Numbered from the stretch's first letter, positions 1,967 through 51,682 are shown. The stretch is 51,778 nt of DNA from a virus (IMGVR_UViG_3300043783_000043:1-51778), one strand, 5' to 3'. Numbers and translations: made by a program. The notes: generated from the letters alone by a model not told the origin.

Positions 1967-2227
1967 ATGGCACGTGACCGCTCGACTGGCATGCAAGATC
2001 GGTCCGCGTGGACACGCGTCGCGGAGGGGCCGAAATTCCTCCGCGGACGTGACTACTCGCATTTGATCGAGTTCAGACGGCCATGTTCTACCTGCGGAGA
2101 AGCGTTCTCAATCTTCGTCACGTGTCGCATCGCAGACGGCGAAGCGGACACCAACTCATTCGGCCTGATCAATTGCGACGCGCACAGGCGTACGCGAAAA
2201 GTAAAAAGAATGCCCTGGGAGATTTGA
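1967..2227 (+). CDS. Zn-finger-like hypothetical protein, paralog of 51167..51682
   Basis: RPCSTCGEAFSIF...NSFG...CDAHR; ends RMPWEI. Confidence 0.7.
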   Translation: MARDRSTGMQDRSAWTRVAEGPKFLRGRDYSHLIEFRRPCSTCGEAFSIFVTCRIADGEADTNSFGLINCDAHRRTRKVKRMPWEI

Positions 2228-2283
2228 CAGCCATAGGGAAACGGCGTTCAAATCCAAGAACTGATTCGCTTGCGGGGGACTCT

Positions 2284-2484
2284 ATGAAAGCGTTCATGCA
2301 GTTTTTTAAGCCGCCCGGGGCGGCATCGTCGCCGGAAGATCGCGTGCGCGTCGCTTTTAATGCCATGGCGACCGTGCTGCTCACCGGGCTTTCGGCGAAC
2401 CCTGAAAGCACGGTGGCCATGCGAAAGCTAATGGAAGCGCAGGATTGCGCGTTGCGTGCGTTGGCGTTCAAATCAGAAAGCTGA
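2284..2484 (+). CDS. Small helical protein resembling the Acb2/Tad1-type hairpin family (66 aa)
   Basis: MQFF...NPESTVAMRKLMEAQDCALRA resembles, from memory, the NPERTVALRKLLEAKDAAVRA family; GGGGA SD. Confidence 0.5.
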   Translation: MKAFMQFFKPPGAASSPEDRVRVAFNAMATVLLTGLSANPESTVAMRKLMEAQDCALRALAFKSES

Positions 2485-2498
2485 TTCGCAACAGAATA

Positions 2499-2533
2499 GC
2501 CCCCTGGGCGGTCTTGGATTCCGTCCAGGGGGC
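2499..2533. terminator. GC-rich intergenic hairpin before the primase gene
   Basis: GCCCCCTGGGCGG / CCGTCCAGGGGGC 13-bp stem with one G-U; no clear U tract on +. Confidence 0.35.
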
Positions 2534-2562
2534 CCGAATCATACACTCGCGAGCCACCGCGA

Positions 2563-4671
2563 ATGCATTCACTTCCTACTGTAACAGAACGCCCGGCGCA
2601 ACCCCCTCGCGCCCCATTAAAGCATGCTTTTCCTGCCACAATGCAGGCGTTTTGGGACGCCTCGATTGCGCGCGGCCTGTTCCCGCTTGCAATAGCGCCC
2701 GGAACTAAACGACCGATTGGCGAGGGCTGGAACTCCTGGACGATGCCGATCGCACATCCAGGCGCCGGCTCCATCGGCTACCGCTGCGTTGACCGCGGGC
2801 TAACAGGCTTTGATACCGACGTGAGCGAGCCAATCCTTTCAGCTCGGCTTCTGGCAGCCTTCCGCGAGGTCCTAGGGCCTAAGATTCCCGTGCGGTGGGG
2901 TAACAAGCCCCGGTTTCTTATCCCCTACTTTTTGACTGACGCGCCGGTCAAAGGCTGCACATTCGAATTTGCGACTGGCGAGAAGCTGCAGCTTATCGGC
3001 GGTCAGTTTGTCGCCTTCGGCCCGCATAAAGACACCGGACAGCCGTACGAATGGGAAAATTGGGATAGCGAATGGCCACGTCTGACGAAAGCGCAGGTGC
3101 TCGACGTGCTGGCGCGCGTACCTGCCATGGCCGGCACGTCGCTCCGCATGCACGCCGAGCACGAGACATGCGACCTGGCAGAGCTGCAAGAGGCCACACC
3201 GCAAACGGAAGATGAATGGCAAGCCGGGCGCGACGCTTCCATGCGCTATCTCGGCATGCTGAAACAAGAATTGATGGGAAGATGGGAGGGCCGCGGCTCA
3301 ACGATTTTCGCGATCGTGGGCGTGCTCAAATTCGGCGAAATGACCGGCTTGTGCACGCGGGAACAAATCGAAGGCGCCGTGATCGAGGCGGGCCATACTT
3401 TAGACGAAGGCCACGGCGGACGCGTGCTTGGCGAGGAGATAGCGCGGCACGATTCGTTGCCCGTACTCCGCGGCAACCTGATCATGGGTGCCATTATGGC
3501 CAGGCGTACATTAAAGCATGCTTTTTTAGAGGCGCAACGAGCGCCGACCTTGGCCGGATGTACGGGCTTTGAGCTTTCACTAAATGACGACACTGCGGAA
3601 CTGCCGTGGCTGCTTTACCAAAGGATTCTATGCGGCGAGGTCCATTTGTTCACTGGCCACTCGGGGGCCGGCAAATCAACTGTGGTCACGGATATAGTCT
3701 ATAGCTACCTGACTGGCACCGCATGGCTTGACGCGGATGTGGAGAAGACTGGCGGCCATGTAATGTGGATCGCCGCGGAGGATGATTACGGCACCGAGCG
3801 CCGCATGCGTCATCTTCTCAGGCAGCATCCTGACGGCCTTGCGCTCGCACAGCGGTTCCATTTGATTCGCGCAATTACTGAGCCCCTCGCCTTCGAGCAG
3901 CAATGCATTGCCCTGATCCAATCAATGGCGGCCATGGGCAAGCGCACCGACGTGCTCGTGCTGGATACCTGGGGAGCTTCGGGCCTGTGCTTTGCGGATA
4001 ACGACACGGAAGCAGTTCTCAGGGCCATGTTCATCCTAAAGCTGGTAGCGCGCCGTACGGAAACAGCATTGCTGATCACGGACCACTTGCCGCTCGGGAA
4101 CGAAGACGCGTGGCAAAAGGGCAACGGCGCCAAGTCGGGCAACAGCGGATTCGTCTATCGCATCACGGCTGGCAGGCAAGAACAGATTTCAATTGATTGC
4201 GGCAAGGCCCGCGGCGCTCCGAAGGCAAAGAGCTATGCCGGCCGAATCGTTTCGGAACCGTACGGGACTGATCGCAAGGGCCGCACAACCACCGTCAACG
4301 TGTTCCGACGCGAAAATGTTGTGAAAGAAGCCGAACAAACAGCGCCGATCCGCCTCGCTGCGATGTTGCCCGGCGCTGTGGCAGAGGGTATGGACGCCTT
4401 GCGAGGTGGGCAGATTGTCAAGTTTGAAAGTGTCAGCGAGCTGGGGAGCAAATTGGCCGATGACGAAGTTCCGGGCCACGTCGTCAACCGCGACGCAGCG
4501 TTCCGAATTTTCGGCAAAGATGGACTAAAAGGCTTGCTCGACTCGGGCTATTTACGTACAATGCGAAGCGCTCCGTACTATGCCGTTTACTCGCCAGTGA
4601 ATGGCCATACAAAGCATGCTTTAGTTATGCCGTGGGCAATAGAGCTACCGAAAAACGGACCATGGAGCTAA
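2563..4671 (+). CDS. Bifunctional primase-polymerase fused to a RecA-type (AAA_25/SF4-like) helicase
   Basis: N-terminal prim-pol motifs (PGTKRPIGEGW, GFDTDV, FVAFGPH); Walker A GHSGAGKST; Walker B VLVLDT. Confidence 0.85.
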   Translation: MHSLPTVTERPAQPPRAPLKHAFPATMQAFWDASIARGLFPLAIAPGTKRPIGEGWNSWTMPIAHPGAGSIGYRCVDRGLTGFDTDVSEPILSARLLAAFREVLGPKIPVRWGNKPRFLIPYFLTDAPVKGCTFEFATGEKLQLIGGQFVAFGPHKDTGQPYEWENWDSEWPRLTKAQVLDVLARVPAMAGTSLRMHAEHETCDLAELQEATPQTEDEWQAGRDASMRYLGMLKQELMGRWEGRGSTIFAIVGVLKFGEMTGLCTREQIEGAVIEAGHTLDEGHGGRVLGEEIARHDSLPVLRGNLIMGAIMARRTLKHAFLEAQRAPTLAGCTGFELSLNDDTAELPWLLYQRILCGEVHLFTGHSGAGKSTVVTDIVYSYLTGTAWLDADVEKTGGHVMWIAAEDDYGTERRMRHLLRQHPDGLALAQRFHLIRAITEPLAFEQQCIALIQSMAAMGKRTDVLVLDTWGASGLCFADNDTEAVLRAMFILKLVARRTETALLITDHLPLGNEDAWQKGNGAKSGNSGFVYRITAGRQEQISIDCGKARGAPKAKSYAGRIVSEPYGTDRKGRTTTVNVFRRENVVKEAEQTAPIRLAAMLPGAVAEGMDALRGGQIVKFESVSELGSKLADDEVPGHVVNRDAAFRIFGKDGLKGLLDSGYLRTMRSAPYYAVYSPVNGHTKHALVMPWAIELPKNGPWS

Positions 4672-4675
4672 TCAG

Positions 4676-5233
4676 ATGAGCGTTGGATCACACCCGATTG
4701 ATATCGACGACGTGCCTGCACGCTATGACGACCTTCGACTTGTTTTTCGTCGTCATCCTTTTATTGCCGACACTATCGATAATCTAATAGACACTGCTGT
4801 TGTCAATCACAATTTCGACATGCCGTTCACTGCCGGCTATAGTCGGTCTTGGCCTCCGCGTTACTATATTGATCGCCACGTCCCTGAAATGGTCCGTTTG
4901 CCAGTTTCCTCGCACAAAGAACTGTTTCGCATTTCTCGTTTTCTTCTTTGTCACGAAGTAACAGAGGTTGTGTTGCAACGTAAATTGTCCGTGCCGCACG
5001 AACGCGCCCATCATCTCGCTACTGCGGCTGAGTACCACGAAGTAAAACGCAAGAATATCAACCTTTTTGCTTATCGAACTTGGATGGCAAAATGGGTGAA
5101 GGCCGACGAAATACGTGCTAGTCGTACTCCGTACCTTCGCATTCCAGCCGATTTCGACACGACACCCATTGAAGCCGATCGTTCTGCCAGAGGCAGCATG
5201 CTGCTTGTACGCGTACGGGAAGCCATGCAATGA
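4676..5233 (+). CDS. Hypothetical protein, possibly metal-binding
   Basis: AGYS...YYIDRH...HEVTE...AHHLA; in operon context. Confidence 0.65.
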   Translation: MSVGSHPIDIDDVPARYDDLRLVFRRHPFIADTIDNLIDTAVVNHNFDMPFTAGYSRSWPPRYYIDRHVPEMVRLPVSSHKELFRISRFLLCHEVTEVVLQRKLSVPHERAHHLATAAEYHEVKRKNINLFAYRTWMAKWVKADEIRASRTPYLRIPADFDTTPIEADRSARGSMLLVRVREAMQ

Positions 5234-5391
5234 CAATAAACAAAGACGGTGAGTTCGACGGCGTGTGCGCGTGCGGCAAGAAAGAGAACGACGGCATACG
5301 GTGCCGTTTCGGAGCGACGCATAAAGTACCGCCTCCACGCGGTATGCCGTGGGAAACAGAACCGCGAAAGGCCATGCCATGGGAGCTTTAA
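5230..5391 (+). CDS. Small protein (53 aa) ending GMPWETEPRKAMPWEL
   Basis: Not in ORF track; ATGA-coupled to the upstream stop. Confidence 0.6.
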   Translation: MTINKDGEFDGVCACGKKENDGIRCRFGATHKVPPPRGMPWETEPRKAMPWEL

Positions 5392-5429
5392 GACAAACAC
5401 GTACATGCGTCACTCTGGAAGTGTCCGCA

Positions 5430-5633
5430 ATGACGTACGCGGAGATCGCCGGAAAACTCCGCGTTGCCGGCTACAATCACGCCTTTGACCGCAATGGCGA
5501 GATTGATATGCACGGGCTCGCGCTTGTGAAAGCCCCGGAGGCAGAGCCGGGCGAACAGTTCAATGAATTCTGTCGGGAGCCGCCATGCGCGTCGGATGTG
5601 TGCCGTCGTCAACGAAAATGTATGTACGCATGA
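5430..5633 (+). CDS. Hypothetical protein (67 aa, MTYAEIAG...)
   Basis: GGAAG SD; ATGA coupling to next gene. Confidence 0.6.
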   Translation: MTYAEIAGKLRVAGYNHAFDRNGEIDMHGLALVKAPEAEPGEQFNEFCREPPCASDVCRRQRKCMYA

Positions 5634-5941
5634 GTATGCCATGGGAACAACCGGAAGCTGACGACGTAGCGGCGACCGTACGCGCGTTACAAGCGGACCT
5701 ACAGTTCATGGTCAGCCATACAGGCATCCTCGTACGGAGTAGCAATGAAGCGCTTCGTATGGTTTTCAATACCGAACGCGGTCAGAGTATGCCAGACCCG
5801 CTCAAATGCACGTTCCGGGAGGGGACGGTAATGGAATTCCAAGACATTGGGATGCCACAGCCCGGAGTGCCGACGAAAACCATCAAGGACATAGTAACGA
5901 CAGCACTAGAACAAGCGTTTGCGTTAGGGTTGCAACCATGA
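5630..5941 (+). CDS. Hypothetical protein (103 aa, MSMPWEQ...)
   Basis: ATGA overlaps at both ends. Confidence 0.7.
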   Translation: MSMPWEQPEADDVAATVRALQADLQFMVSHTGILVRSSNEALRMVFNTERGQSMPDPLKCTFREGTVMEFQDIGMPQPGVPTKTIKDIVTTALEQAFALGLQP

Positions 5942-6809: not shown

Positions 6810-6812
6810 CAC

Positions 6813-6841: not shown

Positions 6842-6863
6842 ACATGAATCGGAGTGAATCACT

Positions 6864-7334: not shown

Positions 7335-8957
7335 ATGTTCGTCCCGCGTAAACATCAAATCGAAGGCGTACGGGCGCTAACCGAATACCCTGAACGTTTC
7401 AGCGTCGTCGAAGCATGCGTGGCCTCCGGCAAGTCAGCCATGCTCGGCATGCTGGCCGCCCACTATCAGCAACACGGTCGCATTCTCATTGTCGCTCACA
7501 ACAAAGAACTGGTGGTTCAAAATGACAAAGCATGCCGAGAACTCGGGTTGCGCCCTGGCATCTGTAGCGCATCCATCAGCACCAATGCCTTTGCCCGGAT
7601 CACAGTGGGAACTGTCGGAACGATCATTAACCGAACACACCTTTTCCGTGACGTGGTGGCAATTCTTGTGGACGAAGTGCACCGCGTACCGCCCGCCAAA
7701 TCTTCGCAGTACAGAGGGCTTTTCGATAAAATCAAAACTGCCAAAGTTCACGGCTTGACAGGTACGCCGTTCCGGGCCGATGGGACGGGTGATCTAGAGA
7801 AAACATTCGGTCCTGTCGTGTACAGGTACACATTCTTAGATGCACTCCGCGACGGCTATGTTAAGCCGTTAGTGCCTGTTGACGCAGGCGAAGACGAAAT
7901 AATCGATGTTGAGGGGCTGAAAACCATAAGCGGTGACTTCGATCTGGAAGAAATGGCGCCCCGTGCAATAAAACTTGCTCCAAGTCACGCAAAGACCATT
8001 TTAGATGTCATGCAGAAATTCAACCGACGCCGTGTACTGGTTTTCTGCTGCAACATAGCTCATGTTGACAAACTAGAATCGGAGTTCAAACGCCATGACG
8101 CTGCTACTGCCGGAGTGCACTCTAGATCGATTGTGGGGAAGCGCGACAAAGCCGTGGATGCCTTCCGGGCGGGGCACGTTCAGATTTTGGTGTCTTGCAA
8201 CATGTTCACCACTGGCTTTGATGTACCCGACATTGATTATCTTGCATTTTGCCGGGCCACCAAATCGGCAGTCTACTACGCGCAAGGTTTGGGACGTGGC
8301 GCTCGGATAACGCCGTATGCTGCAAATTGTCTCGTTTCGGATTTCGGTGGAAATATCGAACGGCACGGTGCGCTTGATGCTGTTGTCGCGACTCCGGGTC
8401 GAATGCTCACATGCGAGCGCGTGTTTGCGGATGATTGCCTATGCAACTGTTCGTGGGAAACTTGGGAGCATGGGCGGACGTGCCCTGCTTGCGAGACAGT
8501 CCATAAAAGCGCTCCCAAGTGTAAGCAATGCAGCGAACGTTTTGATCCTTACTACCACGGCATGCTATGCCCCCATTGTGGCGCGCAGCAAGCAGCAATT
8601 AAACAGTGTGCCGCATGTAGCGAACCGTACGCTGCATTTCTGCACCCTACTTGCCCCTTCTGCGGCTACGACAATGCAGTAGAACAATCGCCTGGCAAAG
8701 ACCTAAAAACCCGTGGGGGAGCTAACGAAGCGGTGACAGTGGCCAAGATTATCGAATCAGAACCGTGGCAAGCGGTTGTTTCTCCGCCAGTCAAGCAATC
8801 CGGCGGCGGGTGGCTGTTAACAACCAAATTCGCAACTGCGATCTGGCCTTACGAGCACCTCCCACAACCGCATTCGGTATTCCTGAAACGTGCACAGAAC
8901 GGACGCTACATGGCTGCAGGCATTTACGACGTTAACGGCGCAGTGCATCAAAAATAA
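7335..8957 (+). CDS. SF2 DExH helicase (RadD/UvsW-like) with C-terminal multi-CxxC Zn ribbons
   Basis: ASGKS, DEVH, GLTGTP, TGFDVP, QGLGRGAR, many CxxC. Confidence 0.9.
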   Translation: MFVPRKHQIEGVRALTEYPERFSVVEACVASGKSAMLGMLAAHYQQHGRILIVAHNKELVVQNDKACRELGLRPGICSASISTNAFARITVGTVGTIINRTHLFRDVVAILVDEVHRVPPAKSSQYRGLFDKIKTAKVHGLTGTPFRADGTGDLEKTFGPVVYRYTFLDALRDGYVKPLVPVDAGEDEIIDVEGLKTISGDFDLEEMAPRAIKLAPSHAKTILDVMQKFNRRRVLVFCCNIAHVDKLESEFKRHDAATAGVHSRSIVGKRDKAVDAFRAGHVQILVSCNMFTTGFDVPDIDYLAFCRATKSAVYYAQGLGRGARITPYAANCLVSDFGGNIERHGALDAVVATPGRMLTCERVFADDCLCNCSWETWEHGRTCPACETVHKSAPKCKQCSERFDPYYHGMLCPHCGAQQAAIKQCAACSEPYAAFLHPTCPFCGYDNAVEQSPGKDLKTRGGANEAVTVAKIIESEPWQAVVSPPVKQSGGGWLLTTKFATAIWPYEHLPQPHSVFLKRAQNGRYMAAGIYDVNGAVHQK

Positions 8958-9036: not shown

Positions 9037-9468
9037 ATGAAACTTGAATTCGGCAGTATCGAGGAAGTGAAAGAGTTCGTAGCGGCGCTCAAAGGCACAC
9101 GCGGCAGGAAAGGCGATGGCGACGGCGAGGCCGGTCCGCAAGCTCCGGCGCCTGTGATGCCGCCGGCGCCGACCGCAGCTACCGCGTTCCAAGGCCCCAG
9201 CGCTGCGCAGGGCTTCATGCCCGCAGCGGCCCCCTTCCCGACCGTCGCGACGGCAAGTGACCCTATTGCTGCACTTGTTCACCGGATTAGCGCGGGCATC
9301 GACACGCAATTGGCACGGGGCTCGGACCCGAACAATGCGTTGACGTGGTTCCGTCAACAGTGCGGCCCGGAGGCCGCCACGGCCACGATGGATCAAATCA
9401 AAGCGGTGTTCCTGCCGCGGCTGCCAGTGCCGGCGCTGGAGAATATTGCGAAACTGACTGGCGCATAA
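9037..9468 (+). CDS. Hypothetical protein with Pro/Ala linker (143 aa)
   Basis: SD; position typical upstream of DUF2800/SSB/PolA modules. Confidence 0.75.
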   Translation: MKLEFGSIEEVKEFVAALKGTRGRKGDGDGEAGPQAPAPVMPPAPTAATAFQGPSAAQGFMPAAAPFPTVATASDPIAALVHRISAGIDTQLARGSDPNNALTWFRQQCGPEAATATMDQIKAVFLPRLPVPALENIAKLTGA

Positions 9469-9489: not shown

Positions 9490-10485
9490 ATGGGACACGA
9501 TATTTTCAACGCATCGTCCGCGGCGACTTGGCTCGAATGCTCATGGAGCGCCCTTAACGCCGTTCCAGAACCACCAAAGAAAGCGAGCACACTTGCCGCG
9601 GCCGATGAAGGCACGCGAAAGCATGGCGTTCTGCTGAATGACGCGAGCATGTTTTTCGGGGAGCTACCCGACGATGCCACGGACGAAGATTACGAAAACG
9701 TGGGTTGGGTAGCAAGCTACGTCAAGCAGCTCGAACGGGGCGCAATCCAGTTTGAATTGCGCGTAAAGATCGCAGATAACTGCGGCGGAACCGCCGACCT
9801 TTTCAACTCACATCCGAACATCGCTACAGTACTGGACGCCAAATTCGGCAAGTGGGACGTTCCCGCATTTCACAACAAGCAATTGCTGACATACGCCGCC
9901 GCGTTGCTGCCGCAGTGCAACGCTGAATGGTGGCGACTTGTGATCTTCCAGCCGAACGGCTTGGATGACGATGACGACCCTTTTAAGCAGTGGATTGCCC
10001 ACCGCTCCGAGGTAGAAGCACACCGGGCTCGTGTGCTGCGTGCTATCGCGGATCGCAGCGCCCCGAGGCCGGGGCCGCATTGCCGTTGGTGCAAGGCATT
10101 CCAGGCTTGTCCGGCGATGGCATCCGACGCGGCTTTCACCATAGGCGCCATGTCGCGCCGGCCGGAAGACCTGACAACTGAGGAACTGGTAAGATTGCTT
10201 CGACTGATTCGCGCCCTGGGGGACGTGAAGCCAGTCTATGAAGATGCTTTGACAGTTCAGTTGAAACTTGGCCGTGCGGCGGAGGGCGCTACGCTAAAGC
10301 CCGGCCGAAAATGGCGTTCGTGGAATGATGATAAGCAAGCGGCTGAATACTTACATTCTCGTTACGGAGCGAAGGCGATAAAACCCGTATCTCCGAAACA
10401 AGCTGAACAACTTGGCGTAGAGGGCAAAAAATACGCCGCTATTGCTGCTCACACTCCCGAAGCGGAATTAAAAGCGTTCTACTGA
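9490..10485 (+). CDS. Cas4-like PD-(D/E)XK exonuclease (DUF2800-like)
   Basis: SSAATWLEC, AADEGT, GGTAD, DAKFG, QLLTYA, GPHCRWCKAFQACP. Confidence 0.85.
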   Translation: MGHDIFNASSAATWLECSWSALNAVPEPPKKASTLAAADEGTRKHGVLLNDASMFFGELPDDATDEDYENVGWVASYVKQLERGAIQFELRVKIADNCGGTADLFNSHPNIATVLDAKFGKWDVPAFHNKQLLTYAAALLPQCNAEWWRLVIFQPNGLDDDDDPFKQWIAHRSEVEAHRARVLRAIADRSAPRPGPHCRWCKAFQACPAMASDAAFTIGAMSRRPEDLTTEELVRLLRLIRALGDVKPVYEDALTVQLKLGRAAEGATLKPGRKWRSWNDDKQAAEYLHSRYGAKAIKPVSPKQAEQLGVEGKKYAAIAAHTPEAELKAFY

Positions 10486-11033: not shown

Positions 11034-11885
11034 ATGGCAACCGGCAGACAGTATGAAGCAGCAACCGTGTTCAATGCGCGCATTGTTGACCTTCGCCACC
11101 TTTGGGTTCCCAGCGATACGTATCAAGGACAGAAAACGCAGAAGCCCAACTTTTTCGCATCGTTCATCGTGCGGAAGACTGCGCCACAATGGCACATGGA
11201 ACCGGCACTCGCGGGTATCGCCCAAGCGTGCGGTAACCTCTTTCAGAAAAATCCGCATATCGTGTCGTGGCCCGTCCAAGACGGTGACGTGCCGAGCCCC
11301 ACTGGCAAACAGTCCGAGCACATCAAAGGGCACTGGTTGTTTACCGGGTCCAGTAGTAACTCGCCATCGGTGGAGCTAGCGCAGCCAAACGGCACTCTCG
11401 TAAAGCTCGCGAACCGCGTCGGCGTGAAACCGGGCGACGTTGTGATGGCTGGCGTCACTGCGGCCGTCAAGCAGAACGACCCGCGCGGCGTCAAGTTGTA
11501 CCTCAATGCCGTCGTGTTCTGCGCTCCGGGCGAAGAAATCGTGTTCGCCAACTCCGTCAGTGGCGCGGAGCTGATGGCGCAGGCCCAGAAGCAGGGCTTG
11601 CGAATTGCCGGGTTTTCAGGCTCTCCAGGTTTCGGAGGCGGCGGGTTCGCACCCCAACCGGGGCCGTTTGGAGGGGCGCCACAGCCGGGTTTTACGCAGC
11701 CCCCGCAAGGGGGGTTTGCTGCGACACCGGGCAGCCCTGCACAACCGGGTGCACCGGCCCCGTCTGGAGCGGCCGCGGTTGGGACTGCATACCCTTCTAA
11801 CCCTGCTCCAGGCGGCTTCCAGCCGCCACCGGCATTCGCACCACAAGGCGGGGCGCCTCAACCGCAAGCGTGGCCGCAGCGATAG
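11034..11885 (+). CDS. ssDNA-binding protein (DUF2815/gp2.5-like) with Pro/Gly/Gln tail
   Basis: PVQDGD, GVKLYLNAV; lies between exonuclease and PolA; AAGGA SD. Confidence 0.75.
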   Translation: MATGRQYEAATVFNARIVDLRHLWVPSDTYQGQKTQKPNFFASFIVRKTAPQWHMEPALAGIAQACGNLFQKNPHIVSWPVQDGDVPSPTGKQSEHIKGHWLFTGSSSNSPSVELAQPNGTLVKLANRVGVKPGDVVMAGVTAAVKQNDPRGVKLYLNAVVFCAPGEEIVFANSVSGAELMAQAQKQGLRIAGFSGSPGFGGGGFAPQPGPFGGAPQPGFTQPPQGGFAATPGSPAQPGAPAPSGAAAVGTAYPSNPAPGGFQPPPAFAPQGGAPQPQAWPQR

Positions 11886-11946: not shown

Positions 11947-14769
11947 GTGATCCCCGATAGTCTCCTAGCTGACGTGGAAACTCGGTCTCGCGTCAATCTT
12001 AAGGCGGCCGGCGCGCGACGGTACGCAGCGGACCAATCTACGCAGGTTACGACAGCTACGTGGATATTTCGCGGCGTTTTAAAAACCGCATGTACAGTGC
12101 ATCCATTCCTAGGGACACACGAGATTCACGAACTCTATAGCGATATCCGGCAGTGCCAACGCTTTGTGGCGCATCATGCAAATTTCGACGTTAACGTGCT
12201 ACGGCGCCAAAATCCGTTCATTGAGATTCCGGTCTCCAAAATTGACTGTACGATGGCCCGTGCACAGTGCCTCGCACTGCCTGGCGGTTTGGACGAAGTA
12301 TGCACGGCACTCGGAATCCGCGGCAAAGACCCACAGGGTCGTGCGCTTGTCATGGCGACATGCAAACCGCAACGCAACGGAGCATTCAACGAAGATGTTG
12401 AAACGTACCGACGATTGCTTGCCTACAACGTACAGGACACGCGTTGCCTTCAAGAGGTAGACAGCCGGCTGCCGCTGTTGTCGCCTTCCGAGCGATTGAT
12501 TTTCGAGCGTACATGGCGGAAGAATGAAACCGGACTGCCTATCGATATTCATTTGGCGACCGCAATTGCGCTCCGGCGAGAGGAGATTGAACAAGAAACG
12601 ACACTGAAACTCATGGAGATCACGAGCAACGCCGTAACCAAACTGTCGCAGCGTCAACGCATTATCGATTGGTGCAATGGCGGAAACCGTGCCGCGGGCT
12701 TGACAGACACGCAAAAGCACACGATTGCCGACAAATTGACTGACGAAAATCTGCATCCCGATGTACGTCTAGTCCTAGAGCTACTACGAGACGAAGGAGG
12801 TTCCGCGCCGCTCAAAGCACAGTCGCTTTTAGACCGACACGTCGATGGCTGGTACAAAGATGCAACACGCTATTTCGGAGCGCGATCGGGCCGCGGCACG
12901 TCCGAGGGCGCCAATATGTTCAATATCGCAAGACCGTCCGGCAAGCACGACGGCAAAAATGGCCGCCCGTCAATCGACAACATAATAGAGCGGCTAAAGC
13001 AGGGGCACACATCGCTAGGCAATATCGCCCTGACAGATTGCCTCCGCGGCTGTATCGTCGCGCCACGCGGCTGGTACATCTGCAATAACGACGAATCAGG
13101 AGCCGAGCTGCGCATCGCACTGTGGCAGGCTGGCGATGGCGAACGTTTAGGCATCTTAGCCGCCGGTAAAGACCTTTACATGCATAACGCGCGAGTTTGC
13201 TTAGGACTTCCTGAAACAGCGACTAAAGACACGCACCCGAAAGAACGTCAAACATTCAAAAGCGTTACACTCGGGGGCAACTACCAACTAGGTTGGCGTA
13301 CGTACCTCGCATTTCTGATAAAAACCGCCGCAGAAAACGGGCTGAAGAAACACGAACTTACCGAAAACAAGGCGCGGACTGACATTGAAGGCTATCGCCG
13401 CGCGAATCCGCTGCTGCAGAAACTTTGGTCGGACCTGGCCGACGCGTTCAAGTTCGCGATCTACGAGCCCCCCGGCCGCATCTTCCCAGCCGGTAAGATC
13501 GCATTCCAGAAAGACGTACACGGTACGGTATGGATGCTGTTGCCGTCCGGCCGTGCCGTACCGCATTACTCGGCGCACATTACGCACACGGGCGAGATGG
13601 CATTCTTTCGTGGCAAGTTCGGTGCCATGCTTCGGCAAAAGGCGTTTGGCGGTTCACTTCTTGAAATATCATGCTTAGCAGGCGAAACAGAGGTACTTAC
13701 TGACGCAGGACTGAAAAGAATTGACAGTGTGTCTGATAACGATAGGGTGTGGGATGGCTATGAATGGGTTAGTCATGGGGGGCTGATATGCCAAGGAAGC
13801 AAAGCCGTCGTGGTAGTATGTGGAACCCACGTCACCCCGGACCATTTGATACTGTGCTCCGAAAAGGACAGTATGCAGACGTGGCGCGCCGCGGGCGCCC
13901 TGTCGCGGAGCGAATTGAAATTGGCGATCGGTTTGGCAATGTCGTCATTACCGGATGGGTCCCGCGTCACGAGGGGCGTGGGAAGCGCATGGACGTTCTT
14001 GTTAAATGCGATTGTGGCGGTCCAGAAGAAATTAAACGCCGCAGTGACTTTCGCAATGCGGGTTTCACAGGCTGCACAATCTGCGCTCGAAATTCATTCG
14101 ACAGGATGCACGCCGTTAACTCCGGCCGCGATTTGGGGCTGGCCAGGACAGTGCATAAGCGACTCGCACGCCAGCTATCGGACGCTGTTTCGAGGTGCAC
14201 AAACCCAAATACACGAAGCTGGCCGCATTACGGCGGTCGCGGAATTTCTGTCTTTTGGCTGTGGCGCGTCAAAGGCGGCACGCGAAATTTTATCGAGTAT
14301 GCTGCGACACTGCCGCACTTTGACAACCCCGCTTTTGAAATGGATCGGAAAGACAACGACGGGAATTATGAACCGGGAAACATTCAATTTATTAGTCGCC
14401 AAGCAAACATGCTCAATCGCAGAAAAATCGAAGATTTTGAAGCAATCCGTTCCGGTTTACGATTTGTTGGACTGTGGCCCTCGCAACCGCTTCATGATAC
14501 GTACGCGTGCGGGGCACTTTCTCTTGGTACATAATTGTCAATCCATGACACGCGATCTCATAACTGCGGCAGAGGCAGATATCGAAAACGAGCTGCCCGA
14601 CGTCCTCTTGCTTCTGGACGTATACGATTCTATTCTGGCCCTTGCTCGTCAAGAGGTCGCTGCCGAACGATCTGCACAAATGCGTGCAATAATGAAACGT
14701 TCGCGATCGTGGACCACCGGACTGCCACTGGACTGCGAAGGCTACGAGGGTAAAAGGTATTCGAAATGA
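11947..14769 (+). CDS. polA: Family A DNA polymerase precursor with intein (940 aa; 652 aa after splicing)
   Basis: Exo DVETRS, HHANFD, YNVQD; motif A DESGAELR; motif B RQTFKSVTLGGNY; motif C DVYDS. Confidence 0.9.
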   Translation: MIPDSLLADVETRSRVNLKAAGARRYAADQSTQVTTATWIFRGVLKTACTVHPFLGTHEIHELYSDIRQCQRFVAHHANFDVNVLRRQNPFIEIPVSKIDCTMARAQCLALPGGLDEVCTALGIRGKDPQGRALVMATCKPQRNGAFNEDVETYRRLLAYNVQDTRCLQEVDSRLPLLSPSERLIFERTWRKNETGLPIDIHLATAIALRREEIEQETTLKLMEITSNAVTKLSQRQRIIDWCNGGNRAAGLTDTQKHTIADKLTDENLHPDVRLVLELLRDEGGSAPLKAQSLLDRHVDGWYKDATRYFGARSGRGTSEGANMFNIARPSGKHDGKNGRPSIDNIIERLKQGHTSLGNIALTDCLRGCIVAPRGWYICNNDESGAELRIALWQAGDGERLGILAAGKDLYMHNARVCLGLPETATKDTHPKERQTFKSVTLGGNYQLGWRTYLAFLIKTAAENGLKKHELTENKARTDIEGYRRANPLLQKLWSDLADAFKFAIYEPPGRIFPAGKIAFQKDVHGTVWMLLPSGRAVPHYSAHITHTGEMAFFRGKFGAMLRQKAFGGSLLEISCLAGETEVLTDAGLKRIDSVSDNDRVWDGYEWVSHGGLICQGSKAVVVVCGTHVTPDHLILCSEKDSMQTWRAAGALSRSELKLAIGLAMSSLPDGSRVTRGVGSAWTFLLNAIVAVQKKLNAAVTFAMRVSQAAQSALEIHSTGCTPLTPAAIWGWPGQCISDSHASYRTLFRGAQTQIHEAGRITAVAEFLSFGCGASKAAREILSSMLRHCRTLTTPLLKWIGKTTTGIMNRETFNLLVAKQTCSIAEKSKILKQSVPVYDLLDCGPRNRFMIRTRAGHFLLVHNCQSMTRDLITAAEADIENELPDVLLLLDVYDSILALARQEVAAERSAQMRAIMKRSRSWTTGLPLDCEGYEGKRYSK
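13672..14535 (+). mobile_element. Intein (288 aa, residues 576-863 of the PolA precursor)
   Basis: Block A CLAGETEVLT, block B VTPDHLI, block F VPVYDLLDCGPRNRF, block G LVHN followed by Cys+1; removal restores GGSLLEIS-CQSMTRD. Confidence 0.93.
13788..14534 (+). CDS. HNH homing endonuclease in an alternative frame inside the intein (start ATG13788 or GTG13881)
   Basis: GDRFGNVVI, KCDCG, CTIC, RCTNPN...YGGRGI, DRKDNDGNYEPGNIQF...NRR. Confidence 0.88.
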   Translation: MPRKQSRRGSMWNPRHPGPFDTVLRKGQYADVARRGRPVAERIEIGDRFGNVVITGWVPRHEGRGKRMDVLVKCDCGGPEEIKRRSDFRNAGFTGCTICARNSFDRMHAVNSGRDLGLARTVHKRLARQLSDAVSRCTNPNTRSWPHYGGRGISVFWLWRVKGGTRNFIEYAATLPHFDNPAFEMDRKDNDGNYEPGNIQFISRQANMLNRRKIEDFEAIRSGLRFVGLWPSQPLHDTYACGALSLGT

Positions 14770-19826: not shown

Positions 19827-20450
19827 TCACACTCCTACGCGTGCGGCCCAAGGCGGTGTCAAAAGCGGGTCTGTCACGTCTTTGTCCGTGGTGTTGACGT
19901 TGGCAAGCTCCGTCGAGGCGACCGGCGGCGTAACCGTCCGTATGGAAGCGGACGGAATGAACGTTCCATCGTAATCGGAAGGCACGATGGTTTGCAACTC
20001 AACAACCACGGACGGCACTGGTTGCGCGAGCGCCTGAATGCCGGTAAATGAGGCCGTTTTGCCCACCTGCTTGTAGTAGGGCGGAGCCTGCAAGAGCGCT
20101 GCTAGCCGGGTCGCATCGTCCGGCGCTGGAGTCGGTGCGTTGGCGAACGTGCTCGGGGCTCCCGACGATGGACCGGCGCCCCAGATATCGTCTAGATTCC
20201 AACGTGCGGGTAGCGGTTCGGGCGGCGGATCGAGGGAACGATCGGGCGCAACTTGGAAATCGTAGACCGGCGGCCACGGGTCCCAGCACGGCCGCACAGC
20301 GCGTCCTGACGCCTTCGTACAGACAAGCAGGCCGGTAAGTTTCTCACGCGCGAGCGTGATGTATGGAACTCGCGTTCCGCAGCGCGAGCACGCGCCCCAG
20401 AAACGATAAGGGGAAAGCTTCGGCTTGACAGTGTGGACGGGCTGGCCCAT
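19827..20450 (-). CDS. Virion-module protein with N-terminal Zn knuckle
   Basis: CSRCG...TGLLVC...CWDP; directly downstream of the capsid gene. Confidence 0.65.
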   Translation of the reverse strand: MGQPVHTVKPKLSPYRFWGACSRCGTRVPYITLAREKLTGLLVCTKASGRAVRPCWDPWPPVYDFQVAPDRSLDPPPEPLPARWNLDDIWGAGPSSGAPSTFANAPTPAPDDATRLAALLQAPPYYKQVGKTASFTGIQALAQPVPSVVVELQTIVPSDYDGTFIPSASIRTVTPPVASTELANVNTTDKDVTDPLLTPPWAARVGV

Positions 20451-31215: not shown

Positions 31216-31379
31216 TACCAGATATCCGCTCCGAAAATACCGGCCACGGCCATGTGCGCCCGCGTCCGGATGGCGTGAAGGCGCGATGCGGCGGCCCGGC
31301 ACTTTGCTCCGTCTGCGCTCGCGAAGCCGCGCGATTGAAAAATCACGAACTCAATCACCCATGTGCGCCTAACAAGTGA
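31212..31379 (+). CDS. Small His/Cys protein (55 aa)
   Basis: Not in ORF track; GHGHVRPRPDGVKARCGGPALCSVCA; 4-nt overlaps at both ends. Confidence 0.65.
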   Translation: MIPDIRSENTGHGHVRPRPDGVKARCGGPALCSVCAREAARLKNHELNHPCAPNK

Positions 31380-32938
31380 ACATCAATCCGCCTTGGGAAA
31401 CGGTCAGACCGCCGTGGGAGCCCGTACTGCTCAACAAAGCAACTGTACGGGCTAAGTTGCTTGATTTCGACAAATACCGTGAAAAGTTTTTGCGCGTACG
31501 GCCGCGGAACGGCGGCGAACGCATACCTTTCATCCTGAATGCGGCGCAGCGTGTTTTGCATGCCAGCATAGAGCGGGAGCGTACCCGATTTGGATTGGTG
31601 CGCGCACTTATCCCTAAAGCCCGGCGGATGGGCGTTAGTACGTACATCGGCGGTCGTTATTTTCATCGCACAGCAACGGAATGGGGCAGACGAGCCCAAG
31701 TTGTGGCGCACCGTTCGGATAGCGCTACGAACCTGCATCGCGAAATAAAGCAGTTCTATGAAGGACTGCCGGCATCCGTACGGCCACGCCTCGGCGCGTC
31801 AAATGCGCGGGAGCTGATCTTTGACGTCCTGAAATCGCTATACAAGGTAGCATCGGCAGAGGGTGGCGATATCAGCCGTTCCGACGATTTTCATCTATTG
31901 CACATGTCCGAAGCGGCATTTTTTGACAACACAGAAGACCTGTCGGCAGGCCTCTTGCAGACCATACAGGATTTGCCCGATACAGAAATTGCAGTGGAAA
32001 GCACGGGCAACGGGCAGTCGGGCATGTTCTATGACATGTGCCGCACAGCTCACGATGAACAGGGCGGCGGGCTGTGGCGGCTGCATTTCCTGCCCTGGAC
32101 AGTAATGCCGGAGTACCGTACGGAGGTTCCGACCGGATGGAAGGCGCCGAAGGAATTTGACGACTACGCCAAGTTCCACGGCCTCGATCGAGAGCAACTC
32201 TATTGGTTCTGGACGAAGAACTACACCCTTGCCGCCATGAACGGCGGCCAGCCGGAGATGATTCACCGGCTCACTAGGCAAGAATATCCGGCGATCTACA
32301 GTGAATGCTTTATGACCGACAGTACGCTGGATTTTTTCCCAGCGTCTCTTGTTGGAGCTGCAATGATACGCAAACCTGCCCCATCAGCCGGTGCATTGAA
32401 ACTTCTGGCCGTGGACCCGGCCGGCGACGGACAGGACAAGTGCTTCGTTTGCGACCGACAGGGCTCTGCGATCGGCGCGCGGGTGTGGGGCGAATTAGCA
32501 AACCGCGATTATAACGTACAAGCAGACTGGCTTGTGCAAACGTTCGAACGATTCAGTATGGACGCAATCGTAATCGATGTGACCGGAACAGGCAAAGGTT
32601 TGCTGGATGCCGTACGGCTCCGCATGCGTCGCTACGGTCCCGAAAAGGTGGTGGCGGTCAACTTTGCATGGGGTGCACTTAACGACGTGCTGTACGGCAA
32701 TCGACGCGCAGAACTCCACGACAGGCTTCAACGCTGGCTGCAAGGCGACGTTTCTGTGCCGAACGATAAAATGCTGCAGGAAGAATGTGCGGCGTATAAG
32801 TGGGGTACAGGCGGCTGCCGACGCGATGAGAAAATGCGGTTGTTCTTGACGCTGAAAGAGAAGGTGCGCGCAGAGTTGAAACCCGTGCGGTCACCCGATC
32901 GGCTAGATGCATGTGCGGTTTCCATGGCTGTGGATTGA
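31376..32938 (+). CDS. terL: Terminase large subunit
   Basis: KARRMGVST, LHMSEAAF, ESTGNG, VDPAGDG, SPDRLDA. Confidence 0.93.
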   Translation: MNINPPWETVRPPWEPVLLNKATVRAKLLDFDKYREKFLRVRPRNGGERIPFILNAAQRVLHASIERERTRFGLVRALIPKARRMGVSTYIGGRYFHRTATEWGRRAQVVAHRSDSATNLHREIKQFYEGLPASVRPRLGASNARELIFDVLKSLYKVASAEGGDISRSDDFHLLHMSEAAFFDNTEDLSAGLLQTIQDLPDTEIAVESTGNGQSGMFYDMCRTAHDEQGGGLWRLHFLPWTVMPEYRTEVPTGWKAPKEFDDYAKFHGLDREQLYWFWTKNYTLAAMNGGQPEMIHRLTRQEYPAIYSECFMTDSTLDFFPASLVGAAMIRKPAPSAGALKLLAVDPAGDGQDKCFVCDRQGSAIGARVWGELANRDYNVQADWLVQTFERFSMDAIVIDVTGTGKGLLDAVRLRMRRYGPEKVVAVNFAWGALNDVLYGNRRAELHDRLQRWLQGDVSVPNDKMLQEECAAYKWGTGGCRRDEKMRLFLTLKEKVRAELKPVRSPDRLDACAVSMAVD

Positions 32939-41674: not shown

Positions 41675-41829
41675 ACATGCCTTGGGACGTACCGCCGGAA
41701 CCCGTACGCGTGCCCTGGGATGTGCCATCAAAGCCTGTACGCCCAGAGCTGGTCAAAGACCCGGTAACGGGGCTGTACCCCGGTCAGATAGATGCTGATG
41801 ACATTCCAGGGTTTCTGAAACGTACGTGA
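41671..41829 (+). CDS. Small protein (52 aa) with 2x PWDVP repeat and FtsZ-tail-like C-terminus
   Basis: Not in ORF track; ATGA-coupled, GGAG SD; ends DADDIPGFLKRT. Confidence 0.7.
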   Translation: MNMPWDVPPEPVRVPWDVPSKPVRPELVKDPVTGLYPGQIDADDIPGFLKRT

Positions 41830-42823: not shown

Positions 42824-43123
42824 TTAGTCTTTTAGATAATCCTCCAATGTCAATCCGATGTCAACCTCAGCCTTTGGCATCCACGATTTAGCTTCGCGGC
42901 GCATGGCGGCCCGTACGACTCCGGTAACCCCGCTATCGCGTGCGCGCTCGAATAGCAGGATTTCGCCTTCCGCGAGCGCCATGTCCACTTCGCGGTCGTC
43001 CTTGAGCGATTCCATCGTGATGCCCGCCGCGCGTGTCGCCAGTTCCGGCGGCACGCCATCACGCAACCGCTGCAGCATCACGTCACGCGGCGTTTTGGAT
43101 TGCTGTGTCCACGGGCCGAACAT
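42824..43123 (-). CDS. Possible terminase small subunit (HTH)
   Basis: LRDGVPPELATRAAGI HTH, LAEGE...LFERA, C-terminal TLEDYL. Confidence 0.5.
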   Translation of the reverse strand: MFGPWTQQSKTPRDVMLQRLRDGVPPELATRAAGITMESLKDDREVDMALAEGEILLFERARDSGVTGVVRAAMRREAKSWMPKAEVDIGLTLEDYLKD

Positions 43124-47791: not shown

Positions 47792-47857
47792 TGTGCCAGC
47801 CCCCGCTCATCTAGGGAGCTGATTCGTAGCACAGCCGGCGCAGCTACTCAATCCAGC

Positions 47858-48726: not shown

Positions 48727-48990
48727 TCAATCGACCTTGGTCCAGTGCGTCCAAGCCGTCGTCACGGCTCCGTAGTAGCGCGTCAGCTCGCTACCGTCCC
48801 AGCGTACAGTTACCCCGCCGCCATCCGTGTCCGTGACGCTGCCAGCCGTCCCGGCCATGGGATTCGCAATACGGTCGCCCGGTTTCAGCGCAGCAAATTC
48901 CTTGATGTTCATTGCACGATACCCCTCACAAGGTCCGTCACACATGCCGCAGCCATGGTGACCGAAGCACCAGACCGTCCGCTCCCTCAT
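48727..48990 (-). CDS. Small SH3/KOW-like protein (start 48990 or 48912)
   Basis: LKPGDRI...GSVT...VTVRWDG. Confidence 0.6.
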   Translation of the reverse strand: MRERTVWCFGHHGCGMCDGPCEGYRAMNIKEFAALKPGDRIANPMAGTAGSVTDTDGGGVTVRWDGSELTRYYGAVTTAWTHWTKVD

Positions 48991-49184
48991 CTGCGTTCCG
49001 GTATGTATTCGTAGACCATTACACGAAGGCCGGCTTTCCGAATAGCGCTCAAATGCTCGTCAAGGAAACGCGGATCGAAGATTTCGATCCGACGCTTCCG
49101 TACCCAATCCAAGCCGTAGTCGGTATTGCCGTGCACACTTACCCACGGGCGGCCAGGCTTGATGACGATATCAATATCAGTCAT
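48987..49184 (-). CDS. Hypothetical protein (65 aa, MTDIDIV...)
   Basis: ATGA coupling; GAGG SD. Confidence 0.6.
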   Translation of the reverse strand: MTDIDIVIKPGRPWVSVHGNTDYGLDWVRKRRIEIFDPRFLDEHLSAIRKAGLRVMVYEYIPERR

Positions 49185-49796: not shown

Positions 49797-50198
49797 TCAA
49801 TAGGCCGCCTTGAAAGCAGGCTCGGGCTTTGTACTGGCAACAGCGACAAGCGCCATGCCTTCCTCGCCGAGCTTCTCCAGCGCAGCCGGCGATTGCAACT
49901 TGAACGCCTTAAGCCCGTACGTGGCGAATGCGAGATCAGCTGCTACAGTTTCGTCATGCCAGAAGCGATGCTTGGCAATCGGCTTGCGCATGGCGCCAGC
50001 GATTGACATGCCATCGGCAATAACGCGCATTTGGATGCGGCTATCGATCACTTCGATGAAGCTAGCCGCAGCCTGCATAGTCTTGGCAAGCGGCACAAGC
50101 TCATTGTCATTGATTGCAGCAACGTCGAGCGCTTGCAGCTCGGACACGATTGCGTCAAGGGCAGATTTCAGTTCAGCGGGGGTCCGGTGGTTTTTCAT
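49797..50198 (-). CDS. Stand-alone paralog of the exonuclease C-terminal domain (133 aa)
   Basis: RFWHDE...YGLKAFKLQSPAALEKLG...FKAAY vs RSWNDD...YGAKAIKPVSPKQAEQLG...LKAFY; conserved leader. Confidence 0.75.
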   Translation of the reverse strand: MKNHRTPAELKSALDAIVSELQALDVAAINDNELVPLAKTMQAAASFIEVIDSRIQMRVIADGMSIAGAMRKPIAKHRFWHDETVAADLAFATYGLKAFKLQSPAALEKLGEEGMALVAVASTKPEPAFKAAY

Positions 50199-50252
50199 GT
50201 CCGATCTCCATCGTTTCGAATGGTGGCGTTCTAGGGTGATTCGCGGCTCGAG

Positions 50253-50405
50253 TCAAGGGCCGTTAATGATCACCATAGCCACAAATGCCACAACAACGAG
50301 CGCACCTGCGACGAGCATGAGCGCCGCTAAAGCGCGAGCTACGTTTGCGCCGAACGCAAATCCGACAAGCGCAATCAAACCAGCCGCAGTCAGAAAATGG
50401 TGCAT
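50253..50405 (-). CDS. Small two-TM membrane protein (50 aa)
   Basis: Conserved leader 50403-50422; hydrophobic. Confidence 0.7.
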   Translation of the reverse strand: MHHFLTAAGLIALVGFAFGANVARALAALMLVAGALVVVAFVAMVIINGP

Positions 50406-50454
50406 GTCACTCTCCAGCGTTTGAATTACGATGGTCGTACGTGTAGCCGGTTGT

Positions 50455-50934
50455 TCAAAGCTTGTCAAGCGTTCGCATTTGGCGCTGTGAATATCTTTTC
50501 GACGCGTCGGTGTCCATGCCGAGCAACCACGCAAGCCGGCCAATCTCGTGCTTTTCGTACTTATTCGCGCAAACCGCGTCCCAATGCGCCACAGCAGCAC
50601 GACCGTTGATCGGCGAGGCCGCAATTGCGATCTTCAGCGCGTAACTAGCCGGTTCATTGCAAGCCGCAACGATCCGCTCTTTGCGTTTCGTGCGTTCAAA
50701 ATCCGTGCGCGCCAGCCGGCTTACCGCAATCAAGTCGTCAATCACGCTTGCAAGCAATCCGCCGCACAATTCCGCTTGTTCGTGCGTTAAGCCGGCATCC
50801 GTACAAGCCGCCGTTAAAGCCGGCGACGTGAACCGTACCAGCTTACTGCGAATAGCCGAACCGTGCCTGCTAACTTGCTCAATTGCATAGCCGGACAGCC
50901 GGGTCGTCAATTGCGTGCTCATGCGATCCGTCAT
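50455..50934 (-). CDS. Hypothetical protein (~160 aa; start uncertain)
   Basis: First gene of the leftward unit. Confidence 0.6.
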   Translation of the reverse strand: MTDRMSTQLTTRLSGYAIEQVSRHGSAIRSKLVRFTSPALTAACTDAGLTHEQAELCGGLLASVIDDLIAVSRLARTDFERTKRKERIVAACNEPASYALKIAIAASPINGRAAVAHWDAVCANKYEKHEIGRLAWLLGMDTDASKRYSQRQMRTLDKL

Positions 50935-51166
50935 AGCCGATCTTGCGCTTTCACACAACTAAGTTTTGCCCCCTCTTTCTTGGCTAGCCCCAGCGTAGCG
51001 GTCGGGGCTAGCCCCCAGGGGGCAGCCCCTCCTCCGGAGGAAGCTATCTGGCATTGCACACCTCTTGACAGCATACATTGCACTGTCCTAAGACCGTACC
51101 ATCAGGGGTCTGTGAGATACCCATGAGACCGCAATTACAACCCCCGGAACCATAGGAGAGCAGAAA

Positions 51167-51682
51167 ATGGGCTTTTTGCGCGGACAGCGGACTGCTGGCG
51201 GATTCCCGCCCAACGGCCAAATGAGCAATCCTGATCCCGGCCGGCACTCCAGGGATGGATGGCAATTCGTCGCAGAGCGCGAAAGCATCCAACTCCAAGG
51301 CAAGCAATACCGGCACATGAAAGAATGGTCGCGACCATGCGCAATCTGCGGCACTCATTTCTCGATCTTTGAGAAGAGCGGCGCTGTGGATGCCAATTCA
51401 CGATTCGGCAACAAGACGTGCGAACACCATCGCGGATTGCTTCCTGCAATGGAAAAAGGCCTGATCAAATGGGATACTGGCACAAAACGATTAGTTGCCG
51501 GCCTCATGCTCGGCACGGACCCTACGCAACCACTCGGCGACATGACCACGGTGGAGCAATTTCAAATGATCAAAAGCACTATGGAACAAGAGATCGCGTG
51601 CCTAAATGAAGACAATACGCGTTTGTTCGCTGAAAACAAACAACTGCGCGCCGAACTCGCTAAACAAAAAGGCCCGTGGTAG
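51167..51682 (+). CDS. Zn-finger plus coiled-coil protein; 3' end lies in the terminal repeat
   Basis: AGGAGA SD; RPCAICG...CEHHR; ends KGPW; TTGACA at 51065. Confidence 0.75.
   Translation: MGFLRGQRTAGGFPPNGQMSNPDPGRHSRDGWQFVAERESIQLQGKQYRHMKEWSRPCAICGTHFSIFEKSGAVDANSRFGNKTCEHHRGLLPAMEKGLIKWDTGTKRLVAGLMLGTDPTQPLGDMTTVEQFQMIKSTMEQEIACLNEDNTRLFAENKQLRAELAKQKGPW

Follow-up and report, generated by a model that had tools for sequence, protein, structure and literature searches.

The uncultured virus record IMGVR_UViG_3300043783_000043, a complete IMG/VR record of 51,778 bases with a completeness estimate of 99% (hereafter the window, meaning the whole stretch analysed), encodes a tailed-phage gene set recognised by PHROG and Pfam scans. 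Proteins as different as its primase-helicase and its large terminase (TerL) begin or end in one short peptide, Phi-P-W-(E/D/Q), in which Phi is mostly M, F, or Y and, in some window copies, G or P. Why do unrelated proteins of one phage share this terminal tag? [quoted passage not shown] Phage docking peptides are mostly unrecognised because they are invisible to domain searches. A first-pass annotation of the window had proposed that the tag is an SSB-tail-like or clamp-like motif, selected at the protein level, that recruits its carriers to one hub, membrane site, or protease. In this study, the tag was found to be a genuine terminal, conserved short linear motif selected at the protein level, and its probable docking function was weighed against alternatives.

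A terminal Pro-Trp motif selected at the protein level

Genes were called with a simple home-made caller. C-terminal results are independent of the caller, and N-terminal results were taken from alignments with orthologues. The clade of the window comprises about 70 related uncultured phage contigs in IMG/VR, with complete genomes of about 52 kb. Ten relatives were taken whole (G001-G010), and counts given for 11 genomes refer to clade genomes. Counts across genomes are not independent because the genomes are related. No GenBank phage gave a megablast match to the window, and a protein search returned only distant Prim-Pol matches with a coverage of at most 30%. Searches with a primase alignment and a TerL alignment revealed no relative among 185,579 bacterial species genomes. 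The TerL alignment retrieved the clade only (57-99% identity) plus a single match at 24%; phages intermediate between the clade and others, for contrasting gene content, were not found in this search.

All nine peptides listed in the first-pass annotation were present in the genes to which they had been assigned. As it had remarked, the Pro codon takes all four third bases (CCC, CCG, CCA, and CCT), and the tag is often doubled. Doubled copies lie 7-11 residues apart. The window statistics were based on a conservative call of 82 genes, without 1967-2227 and without the TerL extension. Terminal PW (at most 20 residues from an end) occurred 12 times, compared with 3.6 expected from per-protein shuffles, and 0 of 1000 shuffles reached 12. 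In five relatives, 11-18 terminal copies were observed vs. 2.8-4.3 expected, and 0-1 of 1000 shuffles reached the count; terminal enrichment over shuffled proteins was thus seen in all six genomes. Because the motif might have been picked after looking, all 400 dipeptides were scored for terminal enrichment, and PW ranked first (z 4.85). Across 11 genomes, [MFYW]PW was found 80 times at termini and 3 times internally, with termini making up just 25% of residues, and [MFYWLIVP]PW had 119 terminal instances in 35 families. Terminal copies read [M/F/Y]-P-W-[E/D/Q/S/A], whereas internal PW reads [G/L]-P-W-[L/T/R/V].

The tag is kept in orthologues (gene coordinates in Table 1). In the primase-helicase, C-terminal PW is followed by 0-7 residues in 26/26 loci (24/24 distinct sequences). 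TerL carries 1-3 PW copies upstream of its conserved core in all 70 loci, which represent 55 distinct sequences, and g5585 has an N-terminal [MFYW]PW[ED] in 24/24 loci (21/21 distinct sequences). PW lies at most 12 residues from the stop in 13/13 distinct open reading frames (ORFs) orthologous to g1967, mostly as K-M-P-W-E, and in 12/12 of those orthologous to g51167. All 25 listed relatives of g5230 have 1-3 PW copies on a tail of variable length. The helix-rich protein at 42824-43123 has an N-terminal PW in 9/11 genomes, seven of them with (M/L)FPW; it matched no family, which leaves its earlier label of possible small terminase without support. The g19827 ending is a variant, PPWAxxKG[VI]-stop, found in 11/11 genomes and 36/39 distinct sequences. 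One further terminal peptide, RPW at 48987-49184, which was absent from the first-pass list, is not conserved in orthologues.

Among relatives, the tag was also found on two kinds of DNA methyltransferase, one of them of the N6_N4 type (4/4 members), on a ParB-like protein, on a G005 primase-helicase that is non-orthologous, on a 68-aa protein with a tag at each end, and on numerous lineage-specific small proteins. All identifiable carriers are DNA-acting.

The sequence next to the tag is far less stable. The 20 residues preceding it in the primase-helicase are highly divergent among orthologues. g1967 and g51167 are paralogues (CxxC..C..H); every relative in this zinc-ribbon family has the ending, mostly K-[MFY]-P-W-[EQGS], and the length and sequence of the linker differ almost everywhere. 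g1967 lacks the coiled-coil stretch of its 92%-identical L002 orthologue and retains the tag. An AlphaFold2 model of the primase-helicase from a 9-row alignment was poor (mean pLDDT 50); the tail was modelled as coil at about 30, but so was half of the protein, and the model is thus no evidence of disorder or self-docking.

Since Trp has a single codon, CCNTGG could itself be a nucleic-acid motif, and the DNA pattern ATGCCNTGGG is over-represented in the window (7 matches vs. 0.63 expected). However, 6 of these 7 matches read M-P-W in frame. In 11 genomes, CCNTGG in the P-W frame occurred at 1.09 per kb at gene ends vs. 0.43, and the other two frames showed no such enrichment (0.51 vs. 0.62 and 0.26 vs. 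0.21 per kb). No extended DNA similarity was found around tag sites. In orthologues, the residue preceding PW varies (M, F, Y, W, or L) and PW is constant. The frame-specific enrichment, the lack of DNA similarity, and the variable preceding residue indicate that the peptide is selected rather than a nucleic-acid signal; with the tag kept on varying tails, they bear out the earlier claim of protein-level selection. A DNA-level motif was rejected, as the enrichment is frame-specific and the sites are without extended similarity. Chance, a composition effect, or a DNA/RNA signal near gene boundaries has next to no probability, given the shuffle tests, the 400-dipeptide look-elsewhere test, the confinement to the P-W frame, the interchange of M, F, Y, and W codons before a constant PW at sites with no wider DNA similarity, and a scrambled control pattern (below) that ends no long frame.

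The tip in other phages and its likeness to known docking peptides

IMG/VR was scanned for DNA encoding K-M-P-W-E followed by TGA or TAA. The TGA form gave 19 matches, of which 16 end ORFs of at least 96 aa; 13 of the 16 lie outside the clade. These 13 cases are five T7-gp4-like primase-helicases, five SSBs (phrog_6015/2300, 4932, and 112), two proteins at the SSB position, one of which adjoins a Sak4-like gene, and one exonuclease. The TAA form was found at no fewer than 119 loci, and 94 of the 121 matches listed end ORFs of at least 95 aa. The largest TAA cluster among the matches listed comprises 77 gp4-like ORFs from phages with a GC content of 0.30-0.41, whose representative matched phrog_239. 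The scrambled control K-W-P-M-E-TAA gave 19 matches, none of which ends a frame of at least 95 codons. Also among the matches listed was a 12-protein cluster (L170 and 11 similar loci of low-GC phages) of about 130 aa, ending DFPWEKMPWE-stop, for which no PHROG family match was found.

In a set of 18 Enc34/gp2.5-type SSB homologues, whose query lies in an exonuclease-SSB-polymerase module like the arrangement of the window, 9 end in PW, W stands among the final four residues of 15, and an aromatic residue lies in the final five of all 18. Distant homologues of the window primase-helicase (at least 550 aa) end in PW in just 4/120 cases, which indicates that the tag and that family are not inherited together. 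F or Y is among the last three residues in 32 of these 120. Inspection by eye showed that several distant Prim-Pol/AAA_25 helicases (P0052-P0181) have as their last three residues a hydrophobic one, Phe, and one that is small or acidic (e.g., VFD, IFD, and PFS), which would be another terminal dialect of phage helicase tails.

Judged from these endings, Phi-P-W-E appears to be one dialect, new and very compact, of the terminal tips on phage SSBs and helicases; hundreds of uncultured phages have primase-helicases and SSBs that end in it. The peculiarity of the clade would be the spread of this tip to many further families and to N-termini, making it a general tag that is also found on the packaging motor and on DNA-modifying enzymes. 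No paper on a phage Phi-P-W tag was found in the open-access literature.

Like the tails of T7 gp4 and gp2.5, the tag is a short aromatic-containing tip on the tail of a primase-helicase (in the clade) and of gp2.5/Enc34-type SSBs (in other phages). This C-terminal location was seen in the 26 primase-helicase loci, the 77 gp4-like ORFs among the matches listed, and 9 of the 18 SSBs. The T7 gp4 tail contacts the T7 DNA polymerase gp5. The gp2.5 tail is described as implicated in contacts with the polymerase and the primase-helicase (PMC5686142). Unlike T7 tails, which are strongly acidic and end in Phe, the clade tag has a neutral or basic context and a Pro-Trp core with 0-4 residues after it; moreover, it is also N-terminal and occurs on at least 10 families, including TerL and methyltransferases.

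SSB-Ct (D-D-D-[IL]-P-F-COOH), which is described as binding many genome-maintenance enzymes (PMC3159472), shares with the tag a hydrophobic-Pro-aromatic core at the end of a disordered linker with an adjacent carboxylate. A hydrophobic residue precedes Pro-aromatic in the tag, with M, F, and Y the commonest among the 119 terminal instances. In contrast to SSB-Ct, in which the aromatic residue is last and bears the free alpha-carboxylate, W is last in 4/64 distinct C-terminal contexts; distinct N-terminal contexts number 55. No acidic run precedes the tip, positions -2 and -3 being mostly K, S, A, T, or E. Clade SSBs end in NPF[GA]PR or AWPxR, and the tip is found on the SSB itself in other phages only. 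The topology is also reversed: SSB-Ct is one tail for many pockets, whereas the clade presumably has many tails for one pocket.

The beta-clamp consensus is Q-L-[SD]-L-F or QxxLxxF, and the tails of T4 gp43, gp33, and gp55 bind gp45. Such clamp-binding motifs, including the PIP box, resemble the tag in placing a single short motif at the N- or C-ends of numerous DNA-acting proteins, and they connect replication to other DNA transactions, as the tag would. The tag differs in lacking Q and LxLF, and neither consensus was matched in tag contexts. PHROG and Pfam scans of the window recognised no clamp gene. The beta-clamp is described as a hub (PMC11139829).

The nearest described motif by sequence is (R/K)PWE of PEX39 and PEX13, which is reported to bind the WD40 protein PEX7, with carriers competing for one site and a predicted K-to-acid salt bridge (PMC12339391). 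K-P-W-E and the K-Phi-P-W-E of the clade are both short conserved plugs on unrelated proteins, but the clade has an extra residue between K/R and P and does not match [RK]-P-W-E. The PEX motif belongs to eukaryotic peroxisome import, whereas the clade consists of phages of bacteria, for which no PEX7-like protein is known. We regard the likeness as convergence, not kinship.

Proposed docking, candidate receptors, and rival readings

Three findings support the tag as a linear motif that is shared by unrelated proteins and resembles the SSB tail: its enrichment at gene ends in the P-W frame only, its conservation on varying tails, and its presence as the ending of both SSBs and primase-helicases in phages unrelated to the clade. 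This part of the first-pass proposal held. Phi-P-W-(E/D/Q) is probably a docking motif of the replisome-tether-tip class that has spread to at least 10 unrelated families and is read by a shared receptor. The tag sits at the extreme N- or C-end of variable, low-complexity tails; Phi-P-W would insert into a hydrophobic pocket of the partner, and a basic lip would hold the adjacent carboxylate. One receptor could gather DNA-acting enzymes and regulators where phage DNA is replicated and packaged, and doubled tags would add avidity. Outside the clade, the same tip ends only an SSB, a primase-helicase, or an exonuclease. Clients in the clade would include the primase-helicase, TerL, two kinds of methyltransferase, the ParB-like protein, the zinc-ribbon proteins, the helix-rich protein, and mini-adaptors. 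If so, the tag provides a simple sequence handle for picking out replisome-associated proteins from the 'hypotheticals' of phages, a route to the organising hub that is open to direct test, and a natural case of a two-partner contact growing into a many-client hub.

Several points weigh against this reading. The common hub, membrane site, or protease of the first-pass proposal goes beyond the sequence facts: no receptor was found, and we infer binding by the tag, a single receptor for all carriers, and the identity of that receptor. The SSB of the window is without the tag and ends in QAWPQR, and its relatives end in NPF[GA]PR. T7 gp4/gp2.5 tails and SSB-Ct are acidic, but the tails of the clade are not, the motif being preceded by K, S, A, or T. 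In phages outside the clade, the tag is on one protein per locus, always the helicase (43/1692 ORFs in 43 loci around gp4-like helicases), and those phages are thus no proof of a multi-client hub. No phage protein is common to all the tagged phages outside the clade, so that several receptors may exist instead of one. The PPWAxxKGV end of g19827 may be a structural or fold element rather than a tag, and the gene calls rest on the home-made caller.

The evidence for a co-evolving reader is similarly qualified. The residue before PW is predominantly Y in G001, F in G006-G009, and M in G002-G004; in the window, M is mixed with G or P. Agreement between families within a genome was 0.425 vs. 0.227 when genomes were permuted, and 0/5000 permutations reached it. 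This agreement is confounded by ancestry, G006-G009 being one lineage, and such inflation makes it only a hint of a co-evolving reader.

The SSB tail of the window was also inspected. It is a long Gly/Pro/Phe-rich low-complexity stretch, with its own conserved tip at about 11868-11882 (QAWPQR-stop; NPF[GA]PR-stop in most relatives). This tip is a second terminal motif, distinct from Phi-P-W-E.

As for the receptor, a conserved host protein is a tentative first candidate. The phage family-A DNA polymerase is an unlikelier one, and the same holds for another core phage replication protein (the gp2.5-like SSB, the DUF2800 exonuclease, the SNF2 helicase, or g9037); that it is something else is doubtful. 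A single complex prediction with three components of G002, namely its DNA polymerase, its SSB, and the final 65 residues of its primase-helicase, scored 0.00, which gives no verdict for or against binding. g9037 is a core protein (11/11 genomes) encoded between the SNF2 helicase and the exonuclease. Its model has a short N-terminal helix and a C-domain of four helices, joined by a disordered Pro/Ala-rich linker in which FNP and FPG spots are conserved, and this predicted build is adaptor-like. A PDB fold search with g9037 gave no match, and the protein atlas gave nothing usable.

The tagged mini-protein g41671 carries a second peptide of interest. Its C-end is DADDIPGFLKRT, which includes DDIPGFLKR at 41797-41823 (DDIPGFLKRT-stop), a look-alike of the FtsZ C-terminal peptide; the E. 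coli FtsZ ending is EPDYLDIPAFLRKQAD followed by the stop. The FtsZ peptide is described as binding ZipA, FtsA, and other division proteins (PMC8669495). Its feature D-[IV]-P-x-F-L-[KR]-[KR], near the C-end after a disordered stretch, is present in g41671. Relatives of g41671 carry EPDYNEIPEFLKR, EPDYDEIPDFLKR, or LAIPAFLKR (loci L070, L073, L068, L077, L089, L057, and L064). Among 12 database homologues, all have the N-terminal tag and 11 have IPGFL[KR]R; P0012 reads TPGFLKR. The pattern [IV]P.[FY][LM][KR][KRN] had 11 distinct matches in the DNA collected, 10 of which are small tagged ORFs. g41671 thus appears to couple the Phi-P-W tag to a phage-encoded mimic of the FtsZ C-terminal peptide. 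Such a mimic hints at a host among the proteobacteria and at a connection of the tag reader with the division machinery. It might be a division inhibitor with avidity derived from the hub, or it may be a membrane tether. No paper on a phage FtsZ-tail mimic was found in the open-access literature, and the mimic would be a new phage route to the host division machinery.

These elements could be combined into an address-tag system. A borrowed replisome tip would place at least 10 families on a single multivalent receptor in a replication-packaging factory, doubly tagged mini-proteins would cross-link it, and the FtsZ-tail mimic would tie the factory to FtsA/ZipA or block division. In this full form the system is possible, although on present evidence unlikely.

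Of the rival readings, mimicry of a host motif fares best, though we consider it unlikely overall. The tag would dock on a conserved host protein, e.g., the pocket for the host SSB tip or a replisome or divisome protein, and so hijack a host hub. The K-M-P-W-E ending occurs in phages with a GC content of 0.27-0.67 that have no shared phage protein, and some tagged phages are temperate with no polymerase in the locus. The FtsZ look-alike on the tagged mini-proteins of the clade is, moreover, a clear host-peptide mimic. However, no relatives were found in bacterial genomes, and the basic context of the tag differs from the acidic SSB-Ct. The drift by lineage of the residue before PW is better fitted by a co-evolving receptor than by a universally conserved pocket.

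A more doubtful alternative is that the tag mimics single-stranded DNA (ssDNA) and binds the cleft of the phage gp2.5-like SSB, with W as a stacked base and the carboxylate as a phosphate; in that case the hub would be DNA coated with SSB. It is the hub reading in a particular form, with a named receptor. In work reportedly by Marintcheva in 2008, the T7 gp2.5 tail is said to be a competitor of ssDNA for the gp2.5 cleft. An Enc34/gp2.5-type SSB is encoded in the window, and in other phages SSBs of several families end in the tip. Nonetheless, nothing places the tag on an SSB as its binding site, the clade SSB has a different tip, and N-terminal copies have no free carboxylate beside W except the E/D side chain.

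A role as terminal degron or remodelling signal for proteases or unfoldases (e.g., ClpX and Lon) or for an adaptor, by which the lifetime of tagged proteins would be timed, is improbable. Its position at either end of disordered tails would suit such a signal, as would the many carriers that are small early proteins, and a protease was among the options of the first-pass annotation. Against this, TerL and the primase-helicase, which are needed in bulk and late, are tagged in every member, and the tag ends SSBs in other phages. The frequent doubling at 7-11 residues suggests avidity, not threading. To our knowledge, no tag read by ClpX or Lon resembles it.

It is very improbable that the tag directs proteins packaged along with the DNA into virions or to the capsid: one carrier gene adjoins the capsid gene and some phages package methyltransferases and ParB-like proteins, but neither TerL nor the primase-helicase would be expected in virions, and elsewhere it is SSBs and gp4-like helicases that end in the tip.

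Tagged genes and other features of the window

Table 1. Tagged genes, replication genes, and further recognised genes of the window
Feature	Coordinates	Strand	Tag or peptide	Basis
Zinc-ribbon protein g1967, 86 aa	1967-2227	+	C-terminal MPWE 2210-2221, two residues before the stop (RMPWEI-stop)	
Prim-Pol/AAA_25 primase-helicase	2563-4671	+	MPWA 4627-4638; GPWS 4657-4668, the final four residues (VMPWAI..NGPWS-stop)	PHROG + Pfam
Cys-rich mini-protein g5230, 53 aa, CxCG..C..H	5230-5391	+	MPWE 5344-5355 and 5374-5385 (GMPWE..AMPWEL-stop)	
g5585, core protein; start possibly ATG at 5630 or 5636	5585-5941	+	N-terminal MPWE 5636-5647 (MSMPWEQ)	
SNF2-type helicase	7335-8957			PHROG/Pfam scans
g9037, hub candidate	9037-9468			
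DUF2800 PD-(D/E)XK exonuclease	9490-10485			PHROG/Pfam scans
Enc34/gp2.5-type SSB	11034-11885			PHROG/Pfam scans
Family-A DNA polymerase	11947-14769			PHROG/Pfam scans
g19827, 207 aa, adjoins major capsid gene	19827-20450	-	C-terminal PPWA 19845-19856 (TPPWAARVGV-stop)	
Large terminase TerL, GTG at 31376	31376-32938	+	VNINPPWETVRPPWEP; N-terminal PPWE 31388-31399 and 31409-31420	phrog_2
Adaptor-like protein g41671, 52 aa	41671-41829	+	MPWD 41677-41688; VPWD 41710-41721 (MNMPWDV..VPWDV)	
Helix-rich protein, 99 aa	42824-43123	-	N-terminal MFGPW (MFGPWTQ); GPWT 43106-43117	
Zinc-ribbon and coiled-coil protein g51167, 171 aa	51167-51682	+	GPW 51671-51679 (KGPW-stop), W the last residue	
Capsid protein, SU10-like portal, endolysin, holin				PHROG/Pfam scans

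The DNA polymerase comprises 940 aa in the window vs. about 645 aa in ten relatives. Its residues from about 577 to 863 are absent from five relatives compared and match the endonuclease family phrog_93; the insert is probably an intein or a homing-endonuclease insertion.

The hexamer GTACGC has 71 copies in the window vs. 29 expected, and 0/100 shuffles reach 71. The 12-base palindrome GCGTACGTACGC occurs at 490-501 and 568-579, 78 bases apart, in the intergenic region before the gene at 783-1061. GTACGC and GCGTACGTACGC may be an operator or a site related to methylation or restriction. In the same intergenic region, the 18-base inverted repeat GGACGGGGTGATTGCAGG and its complement lie at about 635-652 and 733-750 around about 80 bases, and they may form a structured RNA or a regulatory hairpin. 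The 296-aa protein encoded at 28919-29809 in the tail-fibre region matches an alpha-L-fucosidase family (1e-25), and its product may be a receptor-degrading tail enzyme.

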